From positions 1 through 60,268 of IMG/VR virus record IMGVR_UViG_3300044501_000024: DNA of 60,268 bases. One strand, written 5' to 3'. The translations under genes and the position numbers were made by a program. Source of the stretch: a virus. Lineage: Duplodnaviria; Caudoviricetes. The notes below the pieces were generated by a model. It was not told the origin of the DNA. It did not search any database and saw only the letters and a program-made list of their open reading frames with translations. Positions 3,800 to 48,521 of this stretch are shown here, one piece after another. Position 1 is the stretch's first letter. Every line of letters begins with the position of its first letter.

Positions 3800-3810
3800 G
3801 GGAGGCGAGA

Positions 3811-4828: not shown

Positions 4829-4839
4829 ACGCTTAGTCC

Positions 4840-9178: not shown

Positions 9179-9182
9179 ACGA

Positions 9183-11924: not shown

Positions 11925-11935
11925 TTGGAGTGGCC

Positions 11936-12378: not shown

Positions 12379-12442
12379 CCGATCGACGGATCGAGTTCAT
12401 GCTTCGGCTGGACGCGGCGATAGGGAAAGGGGAGTTAGGGCG

Positions 12443-13629: not shown

Positions 13630-13674
13630 GCGGACGCCGAGTTCCGAACGACTGAAAGCTGAAAGGAACGCCAG

Positions 13675-14118: not shown

Positions 14119-14120
14119 GC

Positions 14121-17343: not shown

Positions 17344-18651
17344 ATGGCTGACGCTGCGCAGGACACGACAGCGGTCACCGAGTGGATGCAGGAGACGTAC
17401 ACGAAGAAGGACTTCTTCGATCCGTACCAGGAGTCCTTTACCCCGCTGCTCTCGGACCTGGAGGAGTGCCCGGACGAGCCGGTGAAGGGCAAGCAGTGGA
17501 ACGTCCCCCTGTACATGGCGACCGGCTGGAACGTGCGGACGGGGGCCGAGGGCGGCCCGCAGGCCGAGGTCGAGTCGGATTCCGTGGTCCAGGGTAAGGT
17601 CCGTGCCCACGAGTTCAAGGGCACGGTCAAGCTCACGGAGCTGCTGGAGCGGGTGGGGACGAGCGACGCGCACTTCAACGGCGGCGCGCTCGACCACCAG
17701 ATGAAGCAGCGGACCATGGAGATGTCGAAGCTGATGCAGATCCACTTCTGGGGGTTCGGCGACGGTCGCCTCGGGGTGGTGGACGAAGCGGTGGTCGCCG
17801 GCACCGTGATCAAGCTGCGCCTGCCGAAGGCGTGGACCGCGACGCGCCGGAACATGCGGATCGAGGTCCGGACGACGGCCGGCGTGCTGGAGGGTACCAA
17901 CCCGCTCAAGATCCTGAAGGTCGATCGGAAGCCCGTGGGCATCAGCGGGGCCGGGGCGTTCAACACGTTCGCCGGTCAGATCACGGTGGACCTGGCGACC
18001 ACGGTCAGCGCCGGCAGCGTGATCTACTCCAAGGGCGACTACACGTACGCGCCCAACGGCATCGAGGGGCTGGTCACCGACAACACGGTTCAGAACACGT
18101 TTCTCACGCTGAACCGCACCACGCACGCCCCCGACCTGAACGCGCAGCGCGACCACGCGAACGGCGTGCCGCGCCCGGTCAGCCAGGAGATCTTGCGGTC
18201 GATGTCCGACTCGATCTACTTCGTGGGCCGCGAGATCGACAGCATCCGGTGCAACGCGGGGCAGATCAACAAGGTCGCCAGCCTGTCGGTCAACAACCTC
18301 CGGTACAACGTGGTGTCCGGGGGTTACCCCAAGTACATCCAGGGGCACCGCGAGGGCGATCTGCTGTTCGCCTACGACCGGGTGACCGCGACGTTCAAGA
18401 AGGACCCGCAGTGCCCGCTGCGCCGGATCTATTTCCTGTCGTTCCGCGACTCGTTCAACAAGCACACGAGCGCGGAGTTGGGGTTCCTGCGTCGGGGTGG
18501 CGACATCCTGATGCCGGTCGTCTCCTCGGGCGGCGGCGGGTATGACTACTCGCTCCAGGCCCGGCTGTACGCCGCGAAGAACATCTCGAACTACTTCCCG
18601 GGCGGCAACGGCGTGATCGAGGATCTCGAAGACACGTTGGCCGGGGAGTAG
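17344..18651 (+). CDS. Major capsid protein
   Basis: 435 aa, strongly biased codons, follows the scaffold, PNGIEGLV motif, GC hairpin downstream. Confidence 0.8.
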   Translation: MADAAQDTTAVTEWMQETYTKKDFFDPYQESFTPLLSDLEECPDEPVKGKQWNVPLYMATGWNVRTGAEGGPQAEVESDSVVQGKVRAHEFKGTVKLTELLERVGTSDAHFNGGALDHQMKQRTMEMSKLMQIHFWGFGDGRLGVVDEAVVAGTVIKLRLPKAWTATRRNMRIEVRTTAGVLEGTNPLKILKVDRKPVGISGAGAFNTFAGQITVDLATTVSAGSVIYSKGDYTYAPNGIEGLVTDNTVQNTFLTLNRTTHAPDLNAQRDHANGVPRPVSQEILRSMSDSIYFVGREIDSIRCNAGQINKVASLSVNNLRYNVVSGGYPKYIQGHREGDLLFAYDRVTATFKKDPQCPLRRIYFLSFRDSFNKHTSAELGFLRRGGDILMPVVSSGGGGYDYSLQARLYAAKNISNYFPGGNGVIEDLEDTLAGE

Positions 18652-25640: not shown

Positions 25641-26801
25641 GTGGGCACCCAGCTATATCGCAACCTGATCGAAGCCCAGCATCGGCGTCGGGCGATCGAA
25701 GAGGAAGAGGGTCCGGCGATCGGCGAGTACGGAGAGTTCACGCCGAGCGAGGGGCCTATCGCGACTCGCGCGCGGGCCGAAGAGCGGGGCGCGGGGGAAG
25801 CGCTGCGCTCCAGGTCGCGGTACGTGGAGTCCGAGATCGCGCGTCGCGGGGCTGGGAAGAAGACCAGCGAGCAGATGTCTCGGTACTGGCCGGCCGGCGA
25901 GGCCACCGGCGGTTCGCAGCCGGGCGAGGTGCAGGCGAAGGCCGCGGGGATCGTCGGCGGCCAACAGGCGCGCCAGGCGGACGAGGCGGCCACCGGCAAG
26001 GCCTCTGAGGCGCCGAAGGGAGACGAGCGGATCGTGCTTGGCCGCTGGGGGAAGATCGCGCCAGGCGACTACAACCGCCTGGTGTCCGGCGAAGCCCAGA
26101 GGCTCATGGGGGCCCCCGGTTACGAGTCGGCGGTCGCCGGCGTCCGTGGCCGCGCGTTCGCCCCGGAGATCGAGGGCGAAGGCTGGTCGCCGGAGAACGA
26201 GGCGGCCAGCGAGCGGCTCAACGCGTCGATGAGCGCGGCCGAAGGGCCGTGGGGCGGGGCCGGAGAGCGGATGATGGGCCGGGTGCCACGCGGGTCGCAG
26301 GCCGACATCGGGAGTCGGTTGCAGTTGGAGGACGTGCATCGTCAGCAGCGGGCCTCGGAGCTGGAGTCCGGCGCCCAGGACGTCGAGGCGCTGAAGCAGG
26401 CGGCGACCACGAAGCAGCTCGAAGAGCTGATGAAGATGCCGACCGACCAGGCGCGCGAGTTGCAAAGGTCGGAGCGCGTGTCTCAGGCCCAACAGCGGTA
26501 CCAGTCGCGGCTCGACGAGTTGTCCAAGAAGTACTCCAACTACCAGCGGTTCGCCGGCCAGACTCCGGGGAAGCGCGGTCAGCCTGTGGGCGAGAGCGAA
26601 GACTCGATCGACCAGGTCACGCTCAAGGAAGAGCAGACGAGGGCGCTACAAGACCTGATGCTCGCCATGTACGCGATCGACCGGCAGCCGCAGATCCTCC
26701 AGGCGCTGGCCGGGCTCAAGGTCGACCCTCGGCTGATCGAGCAGGCGGCCATGGCCCAGGCGATGCAGCCCCAGGCGACGAGGACGGCCGAAGGCGAGTA
26801 G
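25641..26801 (+). CDS. Putative internal virion/ejection protein
   Basis: Position, GGAGG RBS, helical Ala/Glu/Gln-rich. Confidence 0.55.
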   Translation: MGTQLYRNLIEAQHRRRAIEEEEGPAIGEYGEFTPSEGPIATRARAEERGAGEALRSRSRYVESEIARRGAGKKTSEQMSRYWPAGEATGGSQPGEVQAKAAGIVGGQQARQADEAATGKASEAPKGDERIVLGRWGKIAPGDYNRLVSGEAQRLMGAPGYESAVAGVRGRAFAPEIEGEGWSPENEAASERLNASMSAAEGPWGGAGERMMGRVPRGSQADIGSRLQLEDVHRQQRASELESGAQDVEALKQAATTKQLEELMKMPTDQARELQRSERVSQAQQRYQSRLDELSKKYSNYQRFAGQTPGKRGQPVGESEDSIDQVTLKEEQTRALQDLMLAMYAIDRQPQILQALAGLKVDPRLIEQAAMAQAMQPQATRTAEGE

Positions 26802-26810
26802 GGGAGGCTG

Positions 26811-29800
26811 ATGGGTCTCCTCGACTGGTTCCAGAGCCCGCCAAGGGACACCACCGACAGCTACGGACGGGCGATCGAGGGAGAAGGCTCTCAGCTCCAG
26901 GACGACGTCTGGGGCAGCGTGAAGTCCGCGTGGGACCGGATCAGGCCGGTGCGCGACGTGGCGTTCGCGCCGTTCGCCATCGGCGACATGCTGATGGGCC
27001 AGTACACGGCCTGGGCCGGGGGCGATGCTGGGCGCCAAGCCTACCGGACGGCGTGGGACCGCAAGCGCTCGGAGATCGAGCAGGCCGAGGGCGCCGAGCA
27101 CTTCGCCGGGCCGCTGGGCGCGCTGCGCGAGATCGAGGCGGCCCCGGGGCTCGGCGACGTGCTGGCCGAAGTCGCGGTGCCCGGAGACGATCCGAGCTAC
27201 ACCGAAGTCCAGCGGTTCGTGAAGCGGTCGACCGCGATGGTCGGCAACATGTTCACGAACCCGGTGAACCTTGTGGGAGGCGGCGTCGCCAAAGGCGCCC
27301 AGGCCTGGGACCGCGCGATGCGCGCGCCGTCCATCGGCTCGCGGGCCGCGGCCATGGCCGAGAGCGTAGCCAACATGTACGGGTCGGCGATTCCGGTAGC
27401 CGCCTACGCCCCGGAGATCGCGGGGCAGGTGGTGGGCGGCGCCCAGACCGGGTACCAGGGGCTGCAAGAGGGGGACACCGACAAGGCGGTAGCCGGGTTC
27501 GGCGAGGCGGTGCTCGGCGCGACGCTCGCCGGCCTCGGGGTGAAGGGCGCGCTCCACGAGGCGAAGGCCGTCCGCGAGTACCGCGGCCTCCGGCGGATGT
27601 CGGACATCGAGGTGGCGATCCGCCAGGAGGCGCTGGCCGAACGGTTCATGGATGGCGACCACACGGTGGCCCCGGAACTGGACATCGCGAACAGCGAGCT
27701 GAAGTCTCGGGCCGGCGATCGACAGATGGACGAGGACCTGGGGCTGGCCATCGCGGCGCGCGACGAGCAGCTGGCGGCCGGCGAGCAGGCCTCGGCCGAG
27801 ACCCTGGCACTGGCCAGGCAGGTGACGCGCGAGACGCGGCCAGAGCCGACGACCGGGGATCTGGTGGACCGGCGGCTGGCAGCCCTTCGTCGGCGGGCGA
27901 CGGAGGCGCCGCGCGTCGAAGAGCCGCGAGCCGCGTACGAGACGGTGGTCGATCGTGAGGCAGGGGAGGCGGCGACGGCCCCGGGCAAGCCCCAGCCGAC
28001 GGCGGCGGCGCTCGAAGCCGGTCGCTACGAAAAGGGGAAGACCGAGGTCAGCGGTCTGCCGATCGCCATCGAGAATCCCGTGGGCAGTGTACGGCGCGGT
28101 CGGGACGAGACGGGACGCGAGTGGGCGACGAGGCTGAAGGCGCACTACGGATACATCGAGGGGGTCAAGGGCAAGGACAAAGATCAGCTCGACGTGTTCG
28201 TGCGCCCCGGGCTGGAGCCGGAGCACGAGGGCCCGGTGTACGTCGTGAACCAGCGGAAGGCCGATGGGTCGTTCGACGAGCACAAGGTGATGTTGGGCTG
28301 GGGGTCCAAGGACGAGGTGCGCGACGCGTACCTCGCGAACTACGACGAGCGTGGGCCGCAGCTCATCCAGTCGATCGCCGAGTTCGGGAGCCCCGAGGCG
28401 TTCAAGGCCTGGATGAAGACGGAGGGCGCGCTCAAGAAGCCGGCGCCCACCGCGGCCCGCGCCAGCGTCGAGGAGCCGATCGTGCTGCCAGAGGGCTTCA
28501 AGCCGACGGAGCACCCGGCTCCGGAGATGGGGCGGCTGCCGTTGGACACGGTGCCCGAACGCCAGAGGACGGCCGCCAGGAAGGCGGCGCAAGCCGTGTC
28601 CAGGGAGATCCAGAAGGGGCGCGGCGGCCCCGAGGAGACGGCCCGGGCCATGGCCAAGCTGCCGGAGGGCCTGCGGCCGTACGCGGACCAGATCCGGAGC
28701 CACGCGGTGCAGGACGCATCCGGGCGGATCCAGGGAGCGGAGTTGCTGGAGACGTTGCGCAGCAACTACGGGGACAGGGGTGCGGACGGAGTGGCGGTCG
28801 CCAGGTCGCCGAGCCATCCGGAGTCGTACGACGTGATCAACAGGCAAGACGGGAAGATCGTGGCTGGGGCGCAGGTTACCGGTGGCCGTGTGACCATGCT
28901 CTCCGGCTCTCGCGAGACGATCGACGCGGTGGACAACGCGCTTGACTCCTTGGGCGCGAAGAGGGACACTAACCTGACAGTCCTCGGTGCCGAACGGCGA
29001 CGCCAGAGGCTGGCGAAGATCAGGGAGGCTGAGAGTGCCAAGGAATTGGGACGACCCGGTGAAAGACTTGGTGGACCCGCTGTTGGAGCGGCTGCGGAAC
29101 CCGAACCTGGACCCGGAGTTCCGCGCGGCGCTCCAGGCCGGGGTCGACCGGCTGAACTCGTTCCGGAACCTGCCGAAGCCGCTGGGGCCCCAGCAGAACC
29201 AGCGGTCGCCGCAGAACCGGCCGCCGCCGAGCCATCGGCCGAGCGGCCAGTAGCACCCATCCGGGCCGCACAGCGCGTCGCCGAGCCGACGACCGAGTAC
29301 GGCGCAGGGAGGCCTGAGCCGCCGCCGGCCGACCCCTTCTACTCCCAACTGAAGCGGACGGCCGAGAAGATCCCGCAGGCGATGAGCGGCAACGACATGC
29401 TGCGCTACCTGAGCGACCCCAAACGCGGGATCAAGGTTGACGAGCTGAAGTGGACGGGTCTCGACGACTTCCTCCGGGGCCGGCCGCGGGCGACCAGGGA
29501 AGAGGTGCAGCAGTTCCTCGCCGAGAACGAGGTGCGGATCGGGGAAAAGGTATTGGGTGGGCAGGGCCTGGAGCCGGGGTGGGAGATCGTCGAGAACGAA
29601 GTAGGCAAATTCAACCTCCGGCGCCCTGACGGCGGGCTGGAGCTGGACAATCAAGGGCAGCCAGCGGTCTGGTCACAGTACCCGGGAGCGCAGAACGCTC
29701 TGGAGTCAAGGGCCCGCAAAGCAGACCCAAAGTTCTCGGCGTACAGGGCGCTCCCCGGGGGCGAGAACTACCGGGAGGTCGTGGTGTCCCTGCCCGGGGT

Positions 29801-32800
29801 GGCGAGGAAGCCGGCGCCTCGCGACGTGACGCCGGACGCCCAGGCGCAGCGTGAGTATCGCGATCGACTCGATCGTCTGATCGCCGAGCGTGAGAAAGCT
29901 GACCGTGACATCGCGGAAGCCCGGGCGATGCCGAAGCAGAAGCCGGAGGGCTGGACGATCACCCAGGGCGACTTCGGGTTCTGGGTGCTTAAAGACGAGC
30001 GAGGCGAGACCGTGGCCACCTCGCCTCACGAAGCGAACCTGCTGGACATGGCCGCGCAACGGGTCCCTGGCGGACCAGCTCGCGTGAGGGCCCTGCACGA
30101 GGCGATCACCATGCGAGCCAACGCCGTTAGCCGGATCGACGGCGTCCACCAGCAGATGGTTCAGGACACGATCTCGCGGATGCCCGAGCCGAAGCGCGCC
30201 AAGTGGCAGGTCGAGACGCCGCCCAAAGGCCACTACCTGGAGCCCGGCGTCGTGTTCCACACGCGGCTCGACGATCGCTGGGTTCCGGACGCGAATGGGC
30301 TCACGGTGAAGAAGGCCGACGGCACATTCACCCGGGACCTGTCGCAGCCCGGTGAACGCGGGCATCGCGCGCTGCTCGTCCAGGAGCTGCAAAGTGATTG
30401 GGCGCAGAAAGGCAGAGATGAGGAGTTCGCCAAAGAACCTACCGAAGCGGAGCGTCTCCTTGCGGATCGTGGCCGGGATATCCGCCGACAGCTTGATGCG
30501 GCGCGCGACAAGTGGCGTCGTGCCGCAGACGCGGTACCGACTCGCCCTGTCAGGGATTCGATTCTGGACTGGTGGTGGGACTTATACGGGACGTTGCGCC
30601 AGAAGCGTGGAGGAGGGACCCGTGAAAATATAATGAAGGATGTGGAGATCGGCTTGGATCTGGAGTCCATCACCCGCCTAGGTGCCGTGTGGAAGATCCC
30701 GGAAGGCTTGAAGAAGGGCCTGTACGACGAACGGTCTCCGGAGTACACCGCGATGTTGCGGGCCGAAGAGCAGGTCAGAAGACTGTCGAGGGAACAGACC
30801 GATAACGATCGGCAACTCAACGTCCACAAAGCGGGCCGCGTTGCTCCGGGCCCCTTCGTCACGGAGACCGGGGAGTGGACGGAACTCGCGTTGAAGCGCG
30901 TGATCAAGATGGCGGCGGACGAGGGCTACGATCGAGTCGCGTGGACGACCGGCGAGCAACAGGTGGAGTTGTACTCGGAAGCGCTCCGGTCTCAGGTGGA
31001 CGAGATCCGCTGGCAGAAGACGAAGGGCGGCGTCCACCTTCTGGGATCAAAGGCCAGGAGCACGGTCGTGGACACGACAGAGAGGGAGACCGCGCTGAGC
31101 GCGGCCATCGGCAAGACGATGGCCGACCAGATCCTCGGGTCGCCCGAGCAGAGCGGGGTTATCTCGGGGCGAGACATCAAGATCAGCGACACGGGGATGG
31201 CCGGGTTCTACGATCAGATCGTGCCCCAGGTGGCCGCGAAGATCGGGAAGAAGTGGGGGGCGAAGGTCGGGGAGACGAAACTGCCGCGCGACATAGAATC
31301 GTTGCCCGGGATGGATATGGAAGAAGGTCTCTCCCTTCTCACCCCAGACGACCTACGGAGAGTAGCGGCAAGCGTTGGCCCCGACGAGTTGCGCGCAAGA
31401 GTGCTTATGACTGCGGACGTTCTGGGCTCCGATGGACCAAAGGCAGCGGCCCGCACTGTCACCTCTGGCACGCAAAAGGATGCTGTATGGTCGGCGGTGC
31501 TGGAAAAGCGGAAGGGAGAGCTTTCGGTGGGGGTCCACTCCATCGACATCAGCCCCGAGATGCGGCGGTCGGTGAGGGCCGAGGGCTTCTCGCTGTTCGA
31601 GACGCGGACCGAATACGAGACCGCGGTGAACGCGGTCCCGGAGGATGCCGCGAAGAGAAACCTGGCGTACGAGACGGCCTCGATGTCCGGGGTCAGCAAG
31701 CGGCACGCGGGGCCCGCTGCGCCCAGGAACCGGCCCGTGGCCTCGGCCGACGGCCGCCAGAGGGCCGGGCCGATCACCTTCGACCAGTGGCTGGGGCGCG
31801 CGACCAGGGAGCTGGGAGGCGTCGGGTCCGACGACTGGCGCACCGCGCGCCGCTGGTACGGTGATCTGCGAGGAAAGTTCGTCGAGGTGTACGGCGAGCG
31901 CGATGCCGACCGGATGCTCACGCTCTGGGCTCTCAGCCAACAGCAGACGTCGCCGAGCGGCGGGCTGGGCTTCGTTTATCGGGCCATCGAGAAGGCGGCC
32001 GGAGTCGAAGGCCTGCCCAAAGCCGGGCTCTCAGAGCCCCGGCTGCTCGGTTACCTCAAGGGCCAGTTCAAGAAGCTTGGCCAGAAGCTGACCGACTTCC
32101 TGGACGCGACTCACGGCCGCCAACGTCGCTCGTGGACCGGTGGCGAGGGACAGTTCCAGCCCGCGCCATTCGACATCTGGGCGATGCGTGATCTGGGGTA
32201 CGTGGATCCGGCGTTCCGCGACATGTTGCCTCCGGAGATGGCGCGGGGCGTTACCCTCGACAATCCGAAGGGGGTTCCTGGGAGCAGGCAGTACCTTCAT
32301 GGATTGCAGCAGTACAACGAGTTCGCCAGGCTGCTGAACGAGCGCAACGTGGACGGCGGCGGGTGGCTGGCGGCCGAGGCCCAGGCCCTTGGGTGGAGCG
32401 CGACCCAGAGGGCGATGGGCCGGCGCCCCGAGGACATTCGCGACATCTTCTCCAGAAACACCAGAGGCGTGTTCTTCGAGGTCACCGGGTTCCCGGAGGG
32501 ATCGGAGCTGGGCTCCCGGTATGGGCCGCTCACCATCGACCAACAGCGGTCCGTGTCGAAGGCGGTTGGCCCCAAGCTGTTCCAGCGGGCGGCCGATGCC
32601 GTGGGCGCCACCGTCGTCGGCGTAGAGTCGAGTTACGGCGGCTGGCAGGGCGGCGTGAACTCGAACGTCGTGGGCCGCCTTGTGGGCACCAGGGAACAGG
32701 TGGAGGACGCGGCCCGGATCATCGGGTTGTCCGCGCAGCAGGGGGAGGTGCTGTTCAACCGCCCGATGGTCAAAGGGCGGCCCGGAGCCGAGATCAGGAT

Positions 32801-35800
32801 CGACTCTGAGTTGGCGTCGAGCCCGGAGTTCGCGCTTGCCGTCTGGCAGCGGGCGGTGGACTTGGAGCCGCAGATGGCGGGCGCCGGGTTCACGCTGAGC
32901 ACCGACAGCCAGGGTCGACCCGCGATGCTGGTGCTCGACCCACGTCCGAAGCGGATAGCTCAGGCCATCGCCAAAGCGGTGGACGCCCTTGACACGAATG
33001 CGACAGTTGATGTAACGTATGGGAAGTACGACACGGGTAGCGTGTCGAACGACTGGAGGGCGCAGCCTAATGGTGAAGCTTATCGAGCGGACGTTGAGCG
33101 ACGAAGAGCTACGCTCGTCGGACGCCCCCTGGACGATCTCGTTTCGGCCTTCCGGACAGATCTCGACGCCGCCGTCCGTGACGCCGGGGGAGTCGTCCGG
33201 GAGCCAGAGCGAGCCCCTGCCGCCCCCTCAGCCGAGCCCGCGGTAGAGGCTCCAGGCGCGACTCGGGTGCCGCCGGAGGCCCCTCGGGCGGTGCCCGAGG
33301 AGGGGGCACCCGAGCCGCGCCCCTTGCCGGCGGCCCAGGAGGCCGCTGGGGCGCCCCCGGAGGCCGTTCCCACCCCAGAGGTCAAAGCGGGTCCGGAGCC
33401 CGCGCTGAGGGCAGGGGAGCGCACCAGGCCGGAAACCAGGCAACAGGCGCAGCAGCAGGCCCTAGAGTCCCTCGACCGCGCGGCCCAGCCGATGCCCGAG
33501 GTCCAGACGGTGAGCGGGCGCCTGGGCCCGGAGGAGCGTGGCGGGGTCAGCACGCTGGGCGTCGCGATCAGCACCGAAGGCCGGCGCACCGGGTGGATCG
33601 ACCTGCGTGGCAAGCGGGTGCGTGGGCCGCGTGATGTCGCGGTGGCCGCCCAGGTGTTCCGCAACCCGTCGTACGAGAGCTTCTATGTCATCGGCACGAA
33701 GGGCAACCGGATCGTGGCGCATCGAGCATGGACCAGCCGGGTACCCAATCAGGCTTTGGTGGTCAAGCAACCCGGCAGGGACTTCTCGGCGATCGCCCGG
33801 TGGCTGGAGCGCTCCGGAGCCGATTCGTACTACTTGGTCCACAACCACCCCGGAGGCTTCCCCGAACCGAGCGTGAACGACGCTCGGTTGACCGATTCGT
33901 TCGCCAGTAAAGTAAGCGAACTCTCCGGTGGCCGCATCAGGCTCAAGTCGCACGTGGTGATTGACAGCGGCAAGTACGGGGTGATCAAGGAAGGCGCTTG
34001 GGGTCGGCGAAAGGGGCGAAAGGAGCGATGGGGCTCGACGGAACTCGGCAGGGGCAAGATCCAACTCTTCGATCTCCCCGGGTGGAATCCGGAGAACGAG
34101 AAGTTCCTGGTCGCGCGGCTGCCGCATCCGGAACTGGGGCGGCATGCGGCGTCCGAGAAGCTCATCGCGTCTCTTGGCCAGAGGCTGCAAACCGATCCGA
34201 GCAAGGTGACTCTCGTCTACCTGACGAGCCGCGGGAACGTCCAGGCGATCCAAGAGGTGCCGCTTGGCCTGTTTCTGAAGCCGAGCCGACTCGCTGAGTG
34301 GGTCCGCGGTCGGTCCCGAGAGTTCGGGGCGTCGATGGTGGCCGCCTATCACGAGCCGTCGGCAGAGATGCCGGCGAAGGCGTTCTACGATGCTGCTACC
34401 AGGCTGGTGCAGGGAAACATCTTGGCCGATGTGGTGTCCGTCGCCTTCGGCAAGCCGTCCGGCGTCCGGGGCGCCGGAGTCGAGCCGCTGCCGATCACAC
34501 GTGAACAGTTCATGGGCCGTGACGTCGGACGTCACGCGGTCGCCGAAACCGGCGCGGGGTACAAGCCAGAGGTCAAAGAGTATGAGCCGTCTGGTGTCCC
34601 CAAGGCGCCCGGCGAAGAGCCGCGGGTCGAGCAGCGCGTCTCGCACATCGAGGCCATGGCCAGGTCGTTGGGCGTCGAGGCCCCGACGCTGAAGAGGGAG
34701 ACGGTCGAGCACTGGTCGGCGCTCGACGAGCCGATCAGGGAGATCGTGCGGACGCGAACCGTCGAGCAGCTCGCGGCCACCGCCGAGAAACGCATCCTGA
34801 CGAACGTCGAGGTTCAGGCGCTCGACGCGATGAACCGGGGAGTTCAGGACCAGACGTACGAATACCTCTCGGAAATCGCCAGGGCCGAGCGGCGGGGGGA
34901 CAAGGCGGGGATGGCCGCCGCCGAACAGCGGTACATGGGCGAGACGATGCGAGCCATTGCCATCGAGCGCGCCCTCGTCAACGACGGGTCGAACGCGGCC
35001 CGCGCCCTCCAGGCTCGGGCCCGGATCATGGCGGCGGCCCCCGAGGGCCCCGGAAAGATGATGCAGAAGATCATCAGGGAGCTGCCCGGGCTATCGGTGA
35101 AGCAGCAGGCTGAGCTGCTGGCCGCTGCGCAACGGGACCCGCTGCGCGCCAAGGACATGCTGCGAGCCGCGTTCAGCCCAGGGTGGAAGAACAAGATCCT
35201 GGAGTGGTGGAAGGCCGGGTTGCTGAGCGCGCCGAAGACCGATATGGCGATGCTCATGGGGAACTCCGCTGAGTTCTTCAGCCGCCTCGGGGAGACGGCG
35301 ATGGGTGGGCTCACCGAGCGGGCGCTGGCCGCGGTCGGCGCCATCCCCAAGGGCAAGACCAGATACGCGCGGGAAGAAGTGGGGCAGGAGATCAGCGGGG
35401 CGATGGATGCGTTTTTCCCGGCGCTCAAGGAGTGGTGGGAGAACGTCCGGAACTTCACGGGCCCCGAGAAACCGCTGACCACTGCGGCCAAGCTGGAGCA
35501 CCAAGTCGGGGCGATCGGCGGGACCCTGGGGAAGATCGTCCGTTGGCCGTTCCGCCGGGCCGAGGCCCACGACGTGCTGTTCAGGCGGATCGGTGGTAGG
35601 GGTGACCTGAAGAAGTTCTCGTGGCGCAAGGCGCGCGAGGAACTGGGGGCGGGGGCCCCGGTGTCGCAGGTCGAGCGGCGCGCCACCGAGATCATGGAGC
35701 AGGCCGAGGCCGGCACGGCGCACGGCGAGCTGATCGAGGAGGTGGCCCAGATCAACGAGCAGCGGACGTTCCAGCAGTCGAACCCGTTCGCCGTTCCAAT

Positions 35801-36998
35801 CTTGAAGTTCAAGCAGCAGTTCCCGCTGGCCGGCAACCTGCTCGCGCCCTTCGTGCTGACGCCGACCAACATCGCGGCGTCCGTCGTCAAGCGCAGCCCC
35901 CTCGGGTTCCTGACCCACGGAGTCTCCACGCTCCGGAGGTTCCGCAGTGGGCTGGCGACGCGCGCCGAGGTGATCGACGCGTTTGCCGCGCCGCTGTTCG
36001 GGAGCACGCTGCTCGGGGCGATGGTGGTGTTGGCGAAGAGCGGGATGTTGACCGGCGGCGGGCCGCCGGATCAGCGCGAGAAGGGCCTGCTGAAGGAAAC
36101 CGGGTGGCAGCCGTACAGCTTCGTGCTCATCGACCCGAAGAACGGACGCCGGGTGTACGTGCCGTTCAACCGGTTCGAACCCATCAGCTCGACGTTGGGG
36201 ATCGCTGCGGATCTCGCGGAGATGGAAGATCCGAAGAGGCGCGGCGACCTGATGAAGAAGGGCGTCGAGTCGATCGCCCAGAACTTCACCAACAAGTCGT
36301 ACATGCAGTCGGTGGTCGACGGACTGAACTTCGTGACCGACCCCAGCAAGTTCGGTCGCCAGTGGATCTCCAGCACCGTGACCAGCCTGATCCCGAACGT
36401 GTTCGCGGCCACCGCCCAGGCGATTGACCCGGTGGTCAGGGATCTGACGCCGAGCGAAGCCGGGATATTCGGGACGCCCGAGAAGATCATGAGGCAGGGA
36501 GCCAGTCGCCTGCCGTTCGTCAGCCGGCTGCTGGCGCCGAAGCCGAGCCCCAGTGGCGAGATCATCGAGCGCCCCGGGTGGGGCCCGACAAGGATCCTGT
36601 TCCCGGTGCAGATCACCGAGGAGCGCGAGGGCCGGCAGTTGGAGAAGATGCTGGTGCGCATCGGGTACGTGCCCGGCACCCCGCGACGCACGCTCACGCA
36701 CCGCGGCCAAGAGATCCCGCTGGGCGACGCCGACTACCGGCTGCTGCTGGAGGCGGACCGCGCGGCGGCCACCCGCGTCCGCGCCCTGATGTCGACCGCC
36801 GGGTTCGGCGCGCTGCCGGACACCGAGGAGGAGGCGGCGGAACCCGGTGAGAGCAAGGAGGGCAAGGTCCGCTCGATCTACACGAAGGCCCGCCAGGAGG
36901 CGAGGAAGCTGGTGTTCGCGCGACCCGAGATCAGGAGTAAGATGTTCGACATCCGGCGCGGCCGGCGGCTGGCGTCGATCCAGGCGAGAGCGGAATGA
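26811..36998 (+). CDS. Giant polyvalent (ejection-type) protein, 3395 aa
   Basis: Inorganic-pyrophosphatase-like domain (HYGYIEG..GKDKDQLDVFV..FDEHKVMLG), QELQSDW-containing domain, glycosylase-like domain, RadC/JAB domain (HNHPGG.PEPS..D) and LPD38-like C-terminus (GWQPYS, RFEPIS). Confidence 0.85.
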   Translation: MGLLDWFQSPPRDTTDSYGRAIEGEGSQLQDDVWGSVKSAWDRIRPVRDVAFAPFAIGDMLMGQYTAWAGGDAGRQAYRTAWDRKRSEIEQAEGAEHFAGPLGALREIEAAPGLGDVLAEVAVPGDDPSYTEVQRFVKRSTAMVGNMFTNPVNLVGGGVAKGAQAWDRAMRAPSIGSRAAAMAESVANMYGSAIPVAAYAPEIAGQVVGGAQTGYQGLQEGDTDKAVAGFGEAVLGATLAGLGVKGALHEAKAVREYRGLRRMSDIEVAIRQEALAERFMDGDHTVAPELDIANSELKSRAGDRQMDEDLGLAIAARDEQLAAGEQASAETLALARQVTRETRPEPTTGDLVDRRLAALRRRATEAPRVEEPRAAYETVVDREAGEAATAPGKPQPTAAALEAGRYEKGKTEVSGLPIAIENPVGSVRRGRDETGREWATRLKAHYGYIEGVKGKDKDQLDVFVRPGLEPEHEGPVYVVNQRKADGSFDEHKVMLGWGSKDEVRDAYLANYDERGPQLIQSIAEFGSPEAFKAWMKTEGALKKPAPTAARASVEEPIVLPEGFKPTEHPAPEMGRLPLDTVPERQRTAARKAAQAVSREIQKGRGGPEETARAMAKLPEGLRPYADQIRSHAVQDASGRIQGAELLETLRSNYGDRGADGVAVARSPSHPESYDVINRQDGKIVAGAQVTGGRVTMLSGSRETIDAVDNALDSLGAKRDTNLTVLGAERRRQRLAKIREAESAKELGRPGERLGGPAVGAAAEPEPGPGVPRGAPGRGRPAELVPEPAEAAGAPAEPAVAAEPAAAEPSAERPVAPIRAAQRVAEPTTEYGAGRPEPPPADPFYSQLKRTAEKIPQAMSGNDMLRYLSDPKRGIKVDELKWTGLDDFLRGRPRATREEVQQFLAENEVRIGEKVLGGQGLEPGWEIVENEVGKFNLRRPDGGLELDNQGQPAVWSQYPGAQNALESRARKADPKFSAYRALPGGENYREVVVSLPGVARKPAPRDVTPDAQAQREYRDRLDRLIAEREKADRDIAEARAMPKQKPEGWTITQGDFGFWVLKDERGETVATSPHEANLLDMAAQRVPGGPARVRALHEAITMRANAVSRIDGVHQQMVQDTISRMPEPKRAKWQVETPPKGHYLEPGVVFHTRLDDRWVPDANGLTVKKADGTFTRDLSQPGERGHRALLVQELQSDWAQKGRDEEFAKEPTEAERLLADRGRDIRRQLDAARDKWRRAADAVPTRPVRDSILDWWWDLYGTLRQKRGGGTRENIMKDVEIGLDLESITRLGAVWKIPEGLKKGLYDERSPEYTAMLRAEEQVRRLSREQTDNDRQLNVHKAGRVAPGPFVTETGEWTELALKRVIKMAADEGYDRVAWTTGEQQVELYSEALRSQVDEIRWQKTKGGVHLLGSKARSTVVDTTERETALSAAIGKTMADQILGSPEQSGVISGRDIKISDTGMAGFYDQIVPQVAAKIGKKWGAKVGETKLPRDIESLPGMDMEEGLSLLTPDDLRRVAASVGPDELRARVLMTADVLGSDGPKAAARTVTSGTQKDAVWSAVLEKRKGELSVGVHSIDISPEMRRSVRAEGFSLFETRTEYETAVNAVPEDAAKRNLAYETASMSGVSKRHAGPAAPRNRPVASADGRQRAGPITFDQWLGRATRELGGVGSDDWRTARRWYGDLRGKFVEVYGERDADRMLTLWALSQQQTSPSGGLGFVYRAIEKAAGVEGLPKAGLSEPRLLGYLKGQFKKLGQKLTDFLDATHGRQRRSWTGGEGQFQPAPFDIWAMRDLGYVDPAFRDMLPPEMARGVTLDNPKGVPGSRQYLHGLQQYNEFARLLNERNVDGGGWLAAEAQALGWSATQRAMGRRPEDIRDIFSRNTRGVFFEVTGFPEGSELGSRYGPLTIDQQRSVSKAVGPKLFQRAADAVGATVVGVESSYGGWQGGVNSNVVGRLVGTREQVEDAARIIGLSAQQGEVLFNRPMVKGRPGAEIRIDSELASSPEFALAVWQRAVDLEPQMAGAGFTLSTDSQGRPAMLVLDPRPKRIAQAIAKAVDALDTNATVDVTYGKYDTGSVSNDWRAQPNGEAYRADVERRRATLVGRPLDDLVSAFRTDLDAAVRDAGGVVREPERAPAAPSAEPAVEAPGATRVPPEAPRAVPEEGAPEPRPLPAAQEAAGAPPEAVPTPEVKAGPEPALRAGERTRPETRQQAQQQALESLDRAAQPMPEVQTVSGRLGPEERGGVSTLGVAISTEGRRTGWIDLRGKRVRGPRDVAVAAQVFRNPSYESFYVIGTKGNRIVAHRAWTSRVPNQALVVKQPGRDFSAIARWLERSGADSYYLVHNHPGGFPEPSVNDARLTDSFASKVSELSGGRIRLKSHVVIDSGKYGVIKEGAWGRRKGRKERWGSTELGRGKIQLFDLPGWNPENEKFLVARLPHPELGRHAASEKLIASLGQRLQTDPSKVTLVYLTSRGNVQAIQEVPLGLFLKPSRLAEWVRGRSREFGASMVAAYHEPSAEMPAKAFYDAATRLVQGNILADVVSVAFGKPSGVRGAGVEPLPITREQFMGRDVGRHAVAETGAGYKPEVKEYEPSGVPKAPGEEPRVEQRVSHIEAMARSLGVEAPTLKRETVEHWSALDEPIREIVRTRTVEQLAATAEKRILTNVEVQALDAMNRGVQDQTYEYLSEIARAERRGDKAGMAAAEQRYMGETMRAIAIERALVNDGSNAARALQARARIMAAAPEGPGKMMQKIIRELPGLSVKQQAELLAAAQRDPLRAKDMLRAAFSPGWKNKILEWWKAGLLSAPKTDMAMLMGNSAEFFSRLGETAMGGLTERALAAVGAIPKGKTRYAREEVGQEISGAMDAFFPALKEWWENVRNFTGPEKPLTTAAKLEHQVGAIGGTLGKIVRWPFRRAEAHDVLFRRIGGRGDLKKFSWRKAREELGAGAPVSQVERRATEIMEQAEAGTAHGELIEEVAQINEQRTFQQSNPFAVPILKFKQQFPLAGNLLAPFVLTPTNIAASVVKRSPLGFLTHGVSTLRRFRSGLATRAEVIDAFAAPLFGSTLLGAMVVLAKSGMLTGGGPPDQREKGLLKETGWQPYSFVLIDPKNGRRVYVPFNRFEPISSTLGIAADLAEMEDPKRRGDLMKKGVESIAQNFTNKSYMQSVVDGLNFVTDPSKFGRQWISSTVTSLIPNVFAATAQAIDPVVRDLTPSEAGIFGTPEKIMRQGASRLPFVSRLLAPKPSPSGEIIERPGWGPTRILFPVQITEEREGRQLEKMLVRIGYVPGTPRRTLTHRGQEIPLGDADYRLLLEADRAAATRVRALMSTAGFGALPDTEEEAAEPGESKEGKVRSIYTKARQEARKLVFARPEIRSKMFDIRRGRRLASIQARAE
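28942..28970 (+). promoter_or_regulatory. Candidate internal promoter TTGACT-N17-GACACT
   Basis: Built from rare host-frame codons (CTT, ACT). Lies 64 bp upstream of nested ORF 29035. Confidence 0.45.
29035..29253 (+). CDS. Nested (+1 frame) 72-aa gene inside the giant protein gene
   Basis: AGGGAGG RBS 6 nt before GTG. Amphipathic helical product. Host-frame codons become A/T-ending over this span. Confidence 0.7.
   Translation: MPRNWDDPVKDLVDPLLERLRNPNLDPEFRAALQAGVDRLNSFRNLPKPLGPQQNQRSPQNRPPPSHRPSGQ
32989..33018 (+). promoter_or_regulatory. Internal promoter TTGACA-N5-GCGACA-N7-TAACGT
   Basis: Same architecture as the intergenic promoters at 43594, 46710, 40958 and 55930. Lies upstream of nested ORF 33070. 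Confidence 0.7.
33070..33246 (+). CDS. Nested (+1 frame) 58-aa gene inside the giant protein gene
   Basis: GGAGG RBS 10 nt before ATG and its own promoter. Host-frame codons become A/T-ending. Confidence 0.65.
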   Translation: MVKLIERTLSDEELRSSDAPWTISFRPSGQISTPPSVTPGESSGSQSEPLPPPQPSPR

Positions 36999-37513
36999 GC
37001 ACGATCACGGTCCTGCCGAAGCGCCTACTCCATCGGTTCGTGCGGTTCGCCCAGTTGCTGGACAAGAAGTTTCTCCAGGGCTCGGAGATCGGTCGTATGC
37101 TGGACACAGAACTGGACCGCATGGGCAGCAGCATCGAGCAGTCGCAGAGCATCCTGTTCCAGTTGTTCGACGCCGACCTGGGGCCCCCGGGGCCACCGCT
37201 GAAAGACGTGATCGGTGAGTTCGGCCTGGTGGGTAGCCCGGCGACCAGGGCGTACGACGACCATCGCCATCCGGCGATCATCGAGTTCAAGGGCGACGTG
37301 CTGACCACCGACGGCATCGAGGTGCGGCGGCTACCGGTGGGCGGCGCGGGGCGCGTGCTGACCGCGGACCCCGCGGAGACCACTGGCCTTCGGTGGACGC
37401 CGAAGGGCGGGTCGGTATCGGGTTCCGGAGGCGACAGCCTCACCGAGCATCTGATCGCGGTTCAGGCCCGCCAGTTGTGGCTGACCGAGATCCAGGCGAC
37501 GAGCTTCAGGTAG
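36995..37513 (+). CDS. Putative tail-fibre-associated protein
   Basis: KGDVLTTDG..RRLPVG..GRVLTADP..TTGLRW motif seen in phage fibres. Confidence 0.6.
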   Translation: MSTITVLPKRLLHRFVRFAQLLDKKFLQGSEIGRMLDTELDRMGSSIEQSQSILFQLFDADLGPPGPPLKDVIGEFGLVGSPATRAYDDHRHPAIIEFKGDVLTTDGIEVRRLPVGGAGRVLTADPAETTGLRWTPKGGSVSGSGGDSLTEHLIAVQARQLWLTEIQATSFR

Positions 37514-37523
37514 CGGAGGGCGG

Positions 37524-37916
37524 ATGGCGGCACCGAACGCAGTCCCCAGACACGTGCTTGAGGGCGTCATCGGAATCGCCCAGATCTCCACGGCGAACAC
37601 AAACCGCGATGGCACCGGGACGATCGGCACCGTGGCGACGGCCGGGGCCCAGGGCACTCTGATCGAGCTGATCAGGGTGAAGGCCACTGGCACGACGACT
37701 GCCGGCATGGTTCGGCTGTACATCCACGACGGGGCGAACGCCCGGCTGCTCGCCGAGATCTCGGTGAGCGCCGCCACGCCGTCGGCCACCGTCCAGACGT
37801 TCGAGGACGAGCTGACGCCGACCACGCCGCTGGTGCTGCCCAGCGGCTACTCGCTGCGCGCCTCGACGCACAACGCCGAGACGTTCAACGTGTTCGCCGT
37901 CGGGGGCCACTACTGA
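37524..37916 (+). CDS. Putative virion structural protein
   Basis: ANTNRDGTGTI...LVLPSGYSL beta-sandwich-type small virion protein. Confidence 0.6.
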   Translation: MAAPNAVPRHVLEGVIGIAQISTANTNRDGTGTIGTVATAGAQGTLIELIRVKATGTTTAGMVRLYIHDGANARLLAEISVSAATPSATVQTFEDELTPTTPLVLPSGYSLRASTHNAETFNVFAVGGHY

Positions 37917-37917
37917 G

Positions 37918-39240
37918 GTGAGAGGCATCAGCCGCGTAGTCGACCTGGTCAAGGCCCGTGCGTTCTTCGACACGCTGCGCGGGCCGCGCGCGGTCTCCCG
38001 GGACCTTGGGCTCCCGGTGGAGCTGGCTGACAGTCACGACCGCGACGCGTTCGGCCGCCTCCGCACGTCGCAACCCTACGTGCTGTTCGATGCGCAGAAC
38101 GAGTACAACGCCAGCAATCTGTTCTGGGAAGACAAGCTGACCGGCACGGCGACCGCCGGGTTCCTGCCCAACGAGTCGGCGATCGACTTGACGGTGTCGG
38201 CGAACGGCGACAAGGCCATCAGGCAATCGCGGCAGTACCTCCGGTACCAGCCGTTACGGTCGCACCTCGTGGTGCTGACCACGGTCCCCGGGGAGCCGGA
38301 GATCGACCTGCGGCGGCGGTGGGGGCTGTTCGACGACCAGAATGGGATCTTCTTCGAATCCCTGGGGAGCACGGTGTCCATCGTGCGACGCAGCTTCACA
38401 TCGGGTGGCGTCGTGGACGACGCCGTCCCACAATCGCAGTGGGGCGTCGCCAGAGGGACTGATCGCCTCGACGGGAGCGGGCTATCTCGGTTCTCGCTGA
38501 GCCAGTTGTTCAACAACATCTACGCGATGGACCTTCAGTGGTTGAGCGCTGGAGCCGTACGCGTAGGGGTCATGGTGGGCCGCGAGCTGCTGTATGCGCA
38601 CGAGTTCGCGAACGAAAACACGCTGACCACTCCCTACATGACGACGGCCAACCTCCCGGTCAGGTACGAGATCGAGGCTCTAGCGGCGCCTGGCGCCACC
38701 AAGCACCTGAAGTCGATCTGCGCCGCAGTGGTCTCGGAAGGCGGGTTCGAGATCGAACGCGGGATCCCGAATAGCGTGGCGATGACCGCGGTCAAGAGCG
38801 TGCCCATCGCCTCGGGGCGAGTCCCGCTCATCTCCATCCGCCCCAAGTCGACGTTCGGCCCCTCGGCGAAGGTGGTGCGCGGCCAGATCATTCCGGAGAG
38901 CATCGCGCCCATCGCGGGTAGCGGGAGCGCGTTGATCACAGCGGTCTACAACCCGACGACGCTGACCGCAGCGGCCTTCGCGTCGGCGGGGACCGACTCG
39001 ATCGTCGACTTCGACACGGCGGCCACCGCGATCACCGGGGGCACCGTGTTGCCCTTCCAGTTCTACGCGAGCGGCGCGGCGGCCGGGGCCCGCGGCGTGG
39101 CGCTGCCCGATCTGCTCAGCCGACTGCCGTTGACCCTGGACATAGCCGGGGCCAACCCGATTGCCCTCACCATCTGCGCACAGAGTCTCGGCGGGACGAT
39201 CGACGCGGCAGCGGCCATCAACTTCAGGGAGCTGTACTGA
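37918..39240 (+). CDS. Putative virion structural protein
   Basis: DAFGRLRTSQPYVLFD, RYQP, WGLFDDQNGIFF, DLQWLSAG and TANLPVRYEI motifs of a widespread phage structural family. Confidence 0.7.
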   Translation: MRGISRVVDLVKARAFFDTLRGPRAVSRDLGLPVELADSHDRDAFGRLRTSQPYVLFDAQNEYNASNLFWEDKLTGTATAGFLPNESAIDLTVSANGDKAIRQSRQYLRYQPLRSHLVVLTTVPGEPEIDLRRRWGLFDDQNGIFFESLGSTVSIVRRSFTSGGVVDDAVPQSQWGVARGTDRLDGSGLSRFSLSQLFNNIYAMDLQWLSAGAVRVGVMVGRELLYAHEFANENTLTTPYMTTANLPVRYEIEALAAPGATKHLKSICAAVVSEGGFEIERGIPNSVAMTAVKSVPIASGRVPLISIRPKSTFGPSAKVVRGQIIPESIAPIAGSGSALITAVYNPTTLTAAAFASAGTDSIVDFDTAATAITGGTVLPFQFYASGAAAGARGVALPDLLSRLPLTLDIAGANPIALTICAQSLGGTIDAAAAINFRELY

Positions 39241-46758: not shown

Positions 46759-47394
46759 TCAGCTCGTCCGTACCAGCATCTGCGACGTGGCCCAGGCCTG
46801 GGCGCGACGAGCGATGACCCCGGACGCGTCGCTGAGGCTCAGGGCCCATCGGTGCCGGGATCCTTTCTTATGCACAGTCACCTGCTCCCGGTTCACTTCC
46901 ACGATGCACAGCACGGGCTCGCCGTCCCCCAGGTTGACGCCCTCGACGAGGAACCGGTAGGTGTTGAACTTCTTCTTGCGCTTCTTGCCCTGGAGCTGGG
47001 GCGGCCTAGGCATCGTGGGACCTGGCCTTCCGGTCCTCGGCATCAAGTTCTGCGTCGTGCCTCAGCACAACCTCGCGAGCGTGCTGGTGCCAGCGCAACA
47101 CCGTGTCCCGCCCGTAGCGCTCGCCGCACGAGCAGCCATCGTACGTGATCCTATGGCCGAGGGCCAGGGCCTGCCGCCGGAACTTGTCCTCGTCCAGCGT
47201 CGTCCGACTCATGGGTCGCACTTTCTTCTGCTGTGAGCCTGGCACACGTGACGCCCGCACCGTCGGCAGATGGCGTACGTGAGGATCGGGCAGCGGAGCC
47301 CGACCACGCTCTGGTGGTAGCAGCGCATCGAGGCAGTAGTATGCCGCCGGGCAAAGGTGATGTCGTGACGACGGTAACGGCCTCTGCCTTTCAT
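46759..47394 (-). other. Small hypothetical genes (about 46759-47013, 47006-47212, 47209-47394)
   Basis: Overlapping ORFs, two with Cys/His zinc motifs. Confidence 0.5.
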
Positions 47395-48521
47395 GGGTTC
47401 AGCTTCCCCATCTTTTCGTACGCGTCGCGCAGCTCACGGCCCTTGAGCGCGTTGATCACGACGGTGCCCGCCGCCTTCTTCAGCAACTGCATCGCCTGGT
47501 CGTAGTCACCACCCACCTTCGTGAGCGCCAGAGAGAACAGCTTCCCACGCAGCTCTCCGTCGTCTGTCGGCAGTGCCTCTGCCGGGGCCTCTACGTTCTC
47601 CGCGCTCTCCCTCTTGGTGCGGGTCTTCTTGGCCTTCGCGCCTTTCTCGGCTGTCGGCAGCGCCTCGTCCACGCCCTTCGAGATCTGAGCCTCGACGATC
47701 GGCTTCAGATCGGCGGGGGAGTCTGGACTCGAACCAGAGACGGCCGCCTTTGCATCCCCCGAGCCCGGGACTCCGGGCTCCACCACGTTGCCGGCGACGG
47801 CCGTGGTGGCCGAATTCATCAGGCCGTCGAGCAGCGGGTCGGCGCCCGACGGCCTGGGCGCTCTGGCGAGTGCCAAGACCGTGGCCTTCGTGGGGTCCCC
47901 GTCTCCCGGGTCGTCCGGAGCCACCTCCGGCTCGCCGGGCAGCCCGTGATCGAACCCGAGCACGACGTCGGAGAACAGGTCGTCGAGCACGAAGCCGGCG
48001 GCGCGGTTGTAGAGCATCCGCTTCTCGCCGTATCCGCGCCAGACATCCTTGTTCCAGAGGCCGGCCTTCTGGGCGTCGGCAACCGAGAAGTCGCGCTCGC
48101 ATGGCTCTCCGGTGTCGGCGCGCCGCGCGAAGACCAGGCACTTGTAGTCCTTCGTGTCCTTCTCACCTTCGTACTTGACGACCCACTCTGCGAGCAGCCC
48201 GCTCTTCCGCACCAGGCCGAGGCGCAGATTGACGTCCGACTTCGCTCGGCCGTTGACCACGGTGATCGTCGACATGCTGGTCACCGGATCCAGCCCGATG
48301 GCCAGTCCCTTGATCATGGCAGCGGCCACCTTGGCGACCTGAGAATCCTTCGAATCTCCGTCGCGCGCCTTGGGCGACAGGCCGTTGTCGACGAACGCCC
48401 GGGCCGTGGCCCATACCTCGGCCATCGACCGGAAGAGTACGCCGCGTCCCAACTGGACGGGCGCGATGTGCTTCTGCACCTTCTGCGGCTGCGGCTGCGT
48501 CGCCTTCTGCTCTTCGCTCAC
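47391..48521 (-). CDS. RecT-like single-strand annealing protein
   Basis: GLAIGLDP..ITVVNGR, FSVADAQKAGLWNKDVW..Y..RML..RA..DLFSDV motifs. Downstream of the exonuclease. Confidence 0.8.
   Translation of the reverse strand: MSEEQKATQPQPQKVQKHIAPVQLGRGVLFRSMAEVWATARAFVDNGLSPKARDGDSKDSQVAKVAAAMIKGLAIGLDPVTSMSTITVVNGRAKSDVNLRLGLVRKSGLLAEWVVKYEGEKDTKDYKCLVFARRADTGEPCERDFSVADAQKAGLWNKDVWRGYGEKRMLYNRAAGFVLDDLFSDVVLGFDHGLPGEPEVAPDDPGDGDPTKATVLALARAPRPSGADPLLDGLMNSATTAVAGNVVEPGVPGSGDAKAAVSGSSPDSPADLKPIVEAQISKGVDEALPTAEKGAKAKKTRTKRESAENVEAPAEALPTDDGELRGKLFSLALTKVGGDYDQAMQLLKKAAGTVVINALKGRELRDAYEKMGKLNP

Follow-up and report, generated by a model that had tools for sequence, protein, structure and literature searches.

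Do the giant genes that encode phage polyvalent proteins carry further genes inside the stretches between their domains? The question is raised by a virus record whose sequence is found in sediment metagenomes (IMG/VR record IMGVR_UViG_3300044501_000024; Duplodnaviria, Caudoviricetes) and whose 60,268 bp were analysed over their full length, referred to below as the window. It contains a 3395-amino acid (aa) open reading frame (ORF) which, judged by its sequence, belongs to the phage polyvalent proteins, the class described by Iyer et al. 2017 (PMC5512222). An earlier note on this DNA had pointed to two smaller ORFs in the +1 frame of the giant gene, here called ORF1 and ORF2, and had suggested that they encode inhibitors of the adjacent effector domains, expressed early and shuffled together with these domains. 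The best explanation as a whole, and in our view probably the right one, is that a true gene, ORF1, lies embedded in the +1 frame of a Gly/Pro/Ala/Glu-rich 'linker' of its host gene. What had been observed in the earlier note is partly confirmed, and the interpretation placed on it is partly supported.

A coding signature in the +1 frame

Both nested ORFs were found where they had been reported (open stretches 28987/29035-29253 and 33019/33070-33246), wholly inside the giant gene, on the same strand and in another frame. The ribosome-binding sites claimed for them are present as Shine-Dalgarno (SD) like motifs at suitable distances from a GTG and an ATG, respectively (Table 1). The claimed position at the end of a folded module also holds, since ORF1 follows directly after the last helix of the module at aa 554-741 (module X) and ORF2 lies over the last ~46 codons of a domain at aa 1613-2132. 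Neither the length nor the openness of the two ORFs is unusual. The giant gene holds 13 +1 ORFs of at least 58 aa, much longer ones in the +2 and antisense frames, and eight off-frame ORFs of at least 50 codons with an SD motif and a start codon. Moreover, when its codons were shuffled synonymously with protein and codon usage fixed (n = 1000), the ORF1 frame was open in 82% and the ORF2 frame in 46% of the shuffles.

It is the codon content that singles out ORF1. With a codon table trained on 31 other genes of the window, the +1 stretch 28978-29250 scored +0.30 bits/codon, compared with 0.37 for real genes, while all other off-frame open stretches of at least 50 codons in the giant gene scored between -0.07 and -0.77 bits/codon. 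The host frame across the same interval scored -0.37 bits/codon, with a G+C content at third codon positions (GC3) of 0.52, and in a 40-codon frame plot the host GC3 is 0.38-0.55 and the host first-position G+C content 0.9-1.0 exactly across ORF1. Synonymous resampling with the host protein fixed was applied to 27 stretches of the +1 frame only, leaving out the last one, which reaches the stop of the gene; the +1 score of ORF1 stood at z = 5.5 and that of ORF2 at z = 2.8, and the 26 stretches other than ORF1 (ORF2 included) ranged from -0.9 to 3.3. A maximal-segment scan of the +1 minus host log-likelihood gave 74 bits for 29047-29217 and 22 bits for 33058-33231, and all segments beyond ORF1 and ORF2 had at most 13 bits. 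The top two +1 segments of the giant gene are hence the two ORFs named in the earlier note.

The same scan on 31 control genes (9692 codons) gave 43 and 35 bits at two gene starts, which we read as mis-set starts, and 23-25 bits at three internal sites consisting of an (EA)n repeat, a (T/S)P repeat and a doubtful gene. In the host frame, the GC3 over ORF1 is 0.46, below all 801 control windows of 58 codons and compared with 0.88 elsewhere; the value over ORF2, 0.62, corresponds to the 1st percentile of these windows. The host 'linker' over ORF1, composed of Gly, Arg, Ala, Pro, Glu, Val and Leu only, would fit a high-GC coding sequence that is read one base off.

Some low-complexity stretches of the window give spurious off-frame signals of 24-25 bits, for instance the (EA)n repeat at 50425-50475 (gene 49992-50819), with a GC3 of only 0.12, and the (T/S)P repeat linker at 15351-15497 (gene 14841-15800). 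A third +1 ORF of the giant gene, 30352-30633, has an SD motif and a GTG at 30394 (79 codons) and lies inside a conserved domain; the host GC3 is lowered there (0.55-0.65) and z is 3.3, but its segment reaches just 13 bits.

Conservation of ORF1 in a second phage

A HMMER search with the ORF1 peptide against 1.84 billion representatives returned five proteins at E <= 0.001. One of them is a 56-aa call identical to ORF1 (P0126) and another a 64-aa homologue with 47% identity (P0128; E 1e-6), the first residue of which aligns with GTG 29035. A third is a 1579-aa HEAT-repeat protein (P0127) whose repeat unit is matched by ORF1 in nine stretches (E 2.5e-16), and the two further matches are repetitive proteins that were taken as spurious. 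When metagenome contigs were scanned with the two-sequence ORF1 alignment, one locus was found (L095; the same contig is present in IMG/VR as L096 and L098). Its giant ORF (3466-14817) encodes 3783 aa with Sno-type helicase, InPase and LPD38 domains, and contains at 5600-5800 a +1 ORF of 66 codons, within whose open stretch no start codon precedes the aligned GTG. The GGAGGCTGA upstream of this GTG and the CAG TAG end are both as in ORF1, and the codon signature amounts to 45 bits with a host GC3 of 0.49. The proposal that relatives retain the +1 ORF together with the same upstream domain is therefore borne out for ORF1, which is intact in L095; for ORF2, no DNA of a relative was found.

Across the first 45 ungapped codons, ORF1 and L095 differ at 43 of 135 nucleotides. 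In the nested frame 28 of 45 residues are identical (omega = 0.46, NG86), in the host frame 20-21 of 45 (omega = 1.16). With 43 random substitutions (5000 simulations) a nested identity of 19.4+-2.2 residues is expected (P(>=28) = 0.0002), and none of 5000 simulations reached 28 identical residues when the counts per codon position were kept; the host-frame identity is indistinguishable from the random-substitution null. A sliding comparison places the switch of the conserved frame at ~29010 in both phages. Over module X (28470-29000) the host frame is conserved and GC3 is 0.8-1.0; past ~29010 the +1 frame shows a conservation of 0.62-0.66 versus 0.47-0.50 in the host frame, and the host GC3 falls to 0.37-0.47 in both phages. 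The nested-frame conservation, the neutral host frame and the frame switch together argue that ORF1 is under selection at the protein level, with the host frame over it merely kept open and drifting neutrally, and we regard ORF1 as very probably a real, selected gene.

Other searches returned less. The ORF1 peptide had no match among viral contigs, and neither module X nor the ORF1 family had one in genome contigs. A protein homologue search with aa 554-815 gave nothing and missed even the L095 protein, probably because low-complexity words filled the candidates. Pfam, PHROG and NCBIfam showed nothing significant on the ORF1 or ORF2 peptides, and when both peptides were compared by blastp and tblastn with the window and with the proteins and loci that had been retrieved, they matched only themselves.

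Module X and the predicted binding of the ORF1 product

Module X is 56% identical to aa 524-711 of the L095 protein, with a host-frame omega of 0.54 and a host GC3 of 0.8-1.0. Its AlphaFold2 model, built from two sequences (mean predicted confidence, pLDDT, 74), has helices at 24-100, a four-strand sheet at 107-146 and helices at 148-187. No Pfam, PHROG or NCBIfam hits cover aa 554-741, and a Foldseek search with module X gave no match at E <= 0.001 and the ESM Atlas no usable hit. The VIA rows for module X have Z values of 4.5-6.3, among them weak GNAT/MYST-like ones. Residues 101-188 (28770-29033) gave repeated weak matches to GNAT/MYST acetyltransferases (Z 4.5-5.2), which are below the noise guide of the tool; InPase domains beside GNAT domains are mentioned by Iyer et al. 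2017 (PMC5512222).

The ORF1 product was modelled by AlphaFold2 from three sequences as a helix at 8-20, a loop and a second helix at 27-44 (pLDDT 86-89), followed by a disordered Pro-rich tail. The predicted helical hairpin fits the resemblance to a HEAT unit of P0127. The earlier note had suggested that each nested peptide be co-folded with its adjacent domain, and for ORF1 this predicts binding. Module X and the ORF1 product gave an interface score (ipSAE) of 0.87-0.88 in three runs versus 0.00 in all three controls, with a contact agreement of at least 84% and a partner pLDDT of at least 71. This mark is reached by 58 of 80 solved complexes and by 2 of 110 mismatched pairs, counts that are rough because the alignments are thin. 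In the model, peptide residues 1-43 pack against the sheet of module X and its long helix (66-100) through 85-90 confident contacts. We therefore consider it probable, on the strength of the co-fold, that the ORF1 product binds module X, whereas it is doubtful that the product is specifically an inhibitor or immunity protein.

ORF2, a candidate

ORF2 is the second-best +1 segment of the giant gene, and the segment ends within ~5 codons of the ends of the ORF. The GC3 dip begins ~100-170 nt upstream of its ATG, and the host frame over ORF2 is itself conserved with P0005 and P0006 (...GRPLDDL...). No homologue of the ORF2 peptide was found among viral contigs, family libraries and fetched proteins or loci, and a search of metagenome and viral contigs with the domain alignment gave no DNA for the three relatives of the domain (P0005, P0006 and P0022). 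ORF2 may be a real gene, but we hold this tentatively and think it rather the less probable outcome.

Proposed mechanism and alternative explanations

If ORF1 is a gene, ribosomes would initiate internally on the late mRNA of the giant gene itself, at the conserved GGAGG-N6-GTG, and the resulting 72-aa protein would have a helical hairpin of 44 residues followed by a Pro-rich tail. Its hairpin part would then dock on module X, encoded immediately upstream, such that the partner is made beside its target, and the module and the partner gene would be inherited and shuffled as one block. The docking might keep the module masked or inhibited up to packaging, assist it as a chaperone would, or contribute a part that its structure lacks.

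Several observations weigh against this reading or against its extension to ORF2 and to inhibition. The sigma70-like promoters that the earlier note had placed upstream of both ORFs were not recovered. A scan of 26000-38000 gave 0 sigma70-like sites (shuffle mean 0.6), and the proposed pairs are TTGACT-17-GACACT for ORF1, with a -10 box of 3/6, and TTGACA-16-TGTAAC for ORF2, with a -10 box of 4/6 that does not have the invariant final T. One RNA run (X20) contained two exact pieces, 31533-31720 and 32991-33221, none of them over ORF1. The second piece covers ORF2 plus its proposed -35 and -10 boxes and therefore, if it is RNA, did not start at that promoter; these data were assembled as contigs, which cannot show starts, and the RNA library may hold DNA. 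As no promoter passed the scan and no transcript start was seen, the 'early expression' suggested for the nested ORFs has no basis. Contigs of four read runs showed 13 single-letter differences, all in run X10 and 0 within either nested ORF, and therefore offer no population test. On the comparative side, the relatives of ORF1 are one with DNA (L095) and one known as protein only (P0128), the selection test is a single pair, and the differences in this pair are spread roughly evenly over the codon positions (16/12/15). The co-fold is a model rather than a measurement, and the alignments behind it had 2 and 3 rows. The invariant residues of the peptide show no preference for the modelled interface, where 12 of the 24 are located; ~14 would be expected, given that the interface comprises 26 of 44 residues. 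Module X shows no recognisable toxic, effector or enzymatic fold in Pfam and fold searches, and inhibition of a toxic effector is therefore only one of several roles that a partner might have. Finally, the 22 bits of ORF2 are inside the range of the control genes, which reach 23-25 bits in low-complexity repeats.

The numerous open frames of the giant gene, the ease with which both frames are open among the shuffles and the eight off-frame ORFs with start signals are what one would expect if both +1 ORFs were chance open frames of a GC-rich gene with nothing encoded, and the score of ORF2 is matched by control genes. However, this explanation is already refuted for ORF1 by its 74 bits, its z value and a host GC3 below that of every control window, together with the conservation of start, stop and peptide in L095, and the control sites that match ORF2 differ from it in being a doubtful gene or repeats of the EA or TP/SP type. 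We therefore judge it exceedingly improbable for the pair. The composition of the host 'linker' is also exactly as expected if ORF1 were a fossil, that is, unexpressed coding DNA from a former small gene or C-terminus that was caught out of frame at a gene fusion, and domain shuffling is rampant in the polyvalent family. Yet the arrangement is older than the split of two phages in which module X is just 56% identical, and since that split the +1 frame has kept 62% identity versus a neutral expectation of 43%. The start, the SD motif and the stop have been kept as well, and although the genome-wide GC3 is 0.86-0.88, the host frame here has retained a GC3 of 0.4-0.5 in each of the two phages, which makes a fossil improbable.

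The modelled position of the hairpin on module X, whose C-terminal helix stops at the start of ORF1, could also result from a +1 ribosomal frameshift near 29030, which would generate an isoform of aa 1-741 plus the hairpin, ending at TAG 29251, with the SD-like site as stimulator. In both phages no stop interrupts the +1 frame over the 19 codons that precede the GTG, and SD-stimulated frameshifting is known in prfB and dnaX. Nevertheless, the sequence ...GAG GCU GAG AGU GCC... shows neither a slippery site nor a shift site next to a stop, conservation of the +1 frame starts only at about the GTG, and GGAGG-N6-GTG is a canonical initiation context that is kept in L095, where the GTG is the first start codon; a frameshift seems a shade less probable even than a fossil. 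The large modelled interface, the absence of a toxin family for module X and a nested omega similar to that of module X (0.46 and 0.54) are all compatible with the ORF1 product serving module X either as an essential part of its structure or as a chaperone in folding, in the manner of a split domain provided in trans, instead of as an inhibitor or immunity protein. Nothing speaks directly against such a role, which shares its evidence with the embedded partner gene that we favour and differs only in what the binding does, and we see it as a real though not a leading possibility.

Cassette behaviour

The giant proteins of the window and L095 share two blocks only, and these are in opposite order. 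One corresponds to module X plus the ORF1 stretch (aa 554-809 with L095 524-781, 52% identity) and the other to the InPase region (aa 377-561 with L095 869-1051, 46% identity). The order is InPase, module X and ORF1 in the window, and module X, ORF1 and InPase in L095, with the homology stopping at about the ORF1 stop. Thus module X and ORF1 stayed together while their neighbours changed. The earlier suggestion that a domain and its nested gene are shuffled as one cassette accordingly holds to the extent that the two are adjacent in both architectures, in a single comparison, and the part of it that concerned an inhibitor is doubtful.

Recurrence in other giant genes

A wider scan of giant open frames that had been retrieved through their relationship to InPase (86 frames with 369,240 codons) detected 21 segments of at least 35 bits, 20 of which are in frame +1; two are start-region artefacts. 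A family of +1 peptides termed D (L022 3444-3623 and its matches) was rejected as an upstream gene overlapping an extended open frame, and L051 6340-6570, at the start of its giant frame, is probably an artefact of the same type. Four families of conserved +1 peptides were found deep inside giant frames, namely A (8 loci), B (16), C (5) and E (3), together occupying 27 different loci, since L018, L021, L034, L038 and L059 carry two families each. The genomes concerned have a G+C content of 41-56%, at which chance would not be expected to produce off-frame ORFs as long as 57-145 codons. Among pairs with less than 70% nested identity, the nested BLOSUM score (87-206) exceeds that of the host frame (6-114) in 15 of 15, and the host frame in these pairs is distinguished from the third frame by its lack of stops alone. 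Family B is also present, unannotated, inside the single giant coding sequence of the cultured Bacteroides phages BS-TP4 and BKO1-TP3; in BS-TP4 the +1 ORF is located at L097 3001-3183 (PQ571277.1 6501-6683), inside a coding sequence of 5391 aa.

L095 itself has a second +1 ORF at 8273-8581, which begins with GGAGGAGG-ATG and encodes 102 aa (78 bits, host GC3 0.43). It is located in a Gly/Pro/Ala-rich linker that leads up to the AAA_34/Sno helicase module; family searches with it were negative, and a contig search recovered only its own contig.

It is conceivable, though we would not call it likely, that polyvalent genes are built from cassettes in which an effector module is followed by a linker holding its cognate +1 partner gene. 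Module and partner would share one mRNA as the template for translation; the partner would dock on the module and thereby mask or mature it in the producing cell, and would be shuffled along with it. ORF1, the second L095 ORF, families A, B, C and E in their 27 loci and the cultured Bacteroides phages would then all be instances of the same arrangement.

The giant gene and its genomic setting

The window is a complete virus record with direct terminal repeats and 67% G+C (64-72%). Within it, the giant gene is flanked by genes for the major head protein upstream (17344-18651) and a virion structural protein downstream (37918-39240). Besides the InPase and RadC-like JAB domains, at least four homology blocks are common to other giant proteins, and the region at aa 2908-3195 is also found in P0005, P0006 and 'PLxRFG' proteins. 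The PHROG matches of the InPase part are 'DarB-like antirestriction', 'minor head' and 'virion structural' proteins. Packaging of the protein in the virion and its injection with the DNA would agree with the literature, the family resemblance and the position of the gene.

A search of 5.8 billion proteins gave 143 relatives of the giant protein at E <= 0.001 among 2535 scored candidates. These are multi-domain proteins of 1900-5900 aa with InPase, ART-PolyVal, LPD, helicase and other domains, some of which carry the source name 'PLxRFG domain-containing protein'. They match the 3395-aa query in discrete blocks that leave aa 700-800 and 2120-2200 uncovered. No variation is offered by the cluster members P0004, P0124 and P0125, since they are fragments of identical sequence. 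Megablast of the giant gene against phages gave no match, tblastn against phages matched the InPase domain only, and viral contigs searched with three parts of the giant protein returned only InPase or distant C-terminal relatives.

Two further features of the window may be mentioned here. A RadC-like JAB domain (33792-33980) and an InPase domain occur within one phage-type polyvalent protein, and a gene for a RecT-like single-stranded DNA-annealing protein is located on the minus strand at 47391-48521, in a leftward-transcribed block.

Table 1. Positions of the giant gene, its domains and nested ORFs in the window, and examples of +1 peptide families at other loci
Feature	Position	Strand	Remarks
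Giant polyvalent-protein gene	26811..36998	+	3395 aa; from ORF and translation; within structural module
InPase domain (aa 400-536)	28008..28418	+	PF18823, E 3e-42 (Pfam)
Module X (aa 554-741)	28470..29033	+	Unnamed folded module directly upstream of ORF1
Shine-Dalgarno-like GGGAGG	29023..29028	+	6 nt before GTG 29035; GGAGGCTGA kept at same place in L095
ORF1, very probable nested gene	29035..29253	+	+1 frame, 72 codons + TAG
Domain aa 1613-2132	31647..33206	+	Host-frame homology to P0005, P0006, P0022; upstream of and partly under ORF2
Shine-Dalgarno-like GGAGG	33055..33059	+	10 nt before ATG 33070
ORF2, nested, candidate only	33070..33246	+	+1 frame, 58 codons + TAG
RadC-like JAB domain (aa 2328-2390)	33792..33980	+	PF04002, E 5e-6 (Pfam)
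C-terminal region, internal-virion-protein-like (aa 2908-3195)	35532..36395	+	phrog_6651, E 2.5e-18
Examples of +1 peptide families A, B, C, E	L074 12636-12869; L058 9129-9374; L004 12372-12740; L034 4292-4726		

Meaning and comparison with known systems

Annotation treats a giant polyvalent gene as one ORF and disregards its low-complexity stretches as mere linkers. According to its codon signature and the selection acting on it, one such linker appears to encode a second protein, which is predicted to bind the neighbouring module. Were this general, there would be a hidden layer of small phage proteins, it would be explained why some 'linkers' resemble off-frame translations, and the pairing of module and partner would provide a testable handle on the unknown domains of injected phage proteins. 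If the cassette arrangement were true as well, the linkers of giant genes would hide a whole class of unannotated proteins.

Embedded same-strand genes in another frame are well known from phages, for instance Rz1 in Rz of lambda and E in D and B in A of phiX174; Rz1 is in the +1 frame and Pro-rich. ORF1 resembles these in being a small gene wholly inside a larger one, in another frame and with its own start signals. It is unlike Rz1 in that its 72 aa contain neither a signal peptide nor a Cys and its host is not a lysis gene, so that it is not a spanin. It further differs from Rz1 and the phiX174 genes in that the part of the giant virion protein overlapping it is a linker that evolves neutrally instead of a constrained domain, and in the predicted binding of its product to the module whose coding sequence directly precedes it. 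Compared with HEAT-like repeat proteins, which consist of tandem helix-turn-helix units of ~40 residues, ORF1 would be a single hairpin unit with no array.

A hidden out-of-frame gene of another kind is the HNH endonuclease in the ShiLan insertion of actinophage DNA methylase genes (PMC11855218). As in ORF1, a stop-free host frame there covers a real gene in another frame, with a GTG near the 5' end and a stop at the 3' end. The hidden gene of ShiLan, however, encodes a homing endonuclease and thereby confers mobility on the insertion, whereas ORF1 specifies a 72-aa hairpin with no nuclease family hit. The host gene itself conforms to the polyvalent proteins of Iyer et al. 2017 (PMC5512222) in being giant and multi-domain, in combining InPase and RadC-like domains and in lying among virion genes. 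In the main text of that paper the words 'overlapping' and 'frameshift' have 0 occurrences and linker-embedded genes are not described. We found no published description of embedded genes in polyvalent proteins; the supplements of Iyer 2017, which were outside the scope of this search, might list module X among its LPD families.

A further parallel is provided by polymorphic toxin-immunity cassettes, for instance those of the MuF toxins of temperate phages (PMC5576092). In both cases a small partner gene starts where a variable module ends, and module and partner occur together across architectures; for ORF1, binding between the two is predicted by the co-fold. Unlike in the MuF cassettes, the module next to ORF1 is internal and not C-terminal, and its putative partner is overprinted on the host gene instead of following it as a downstream gene.

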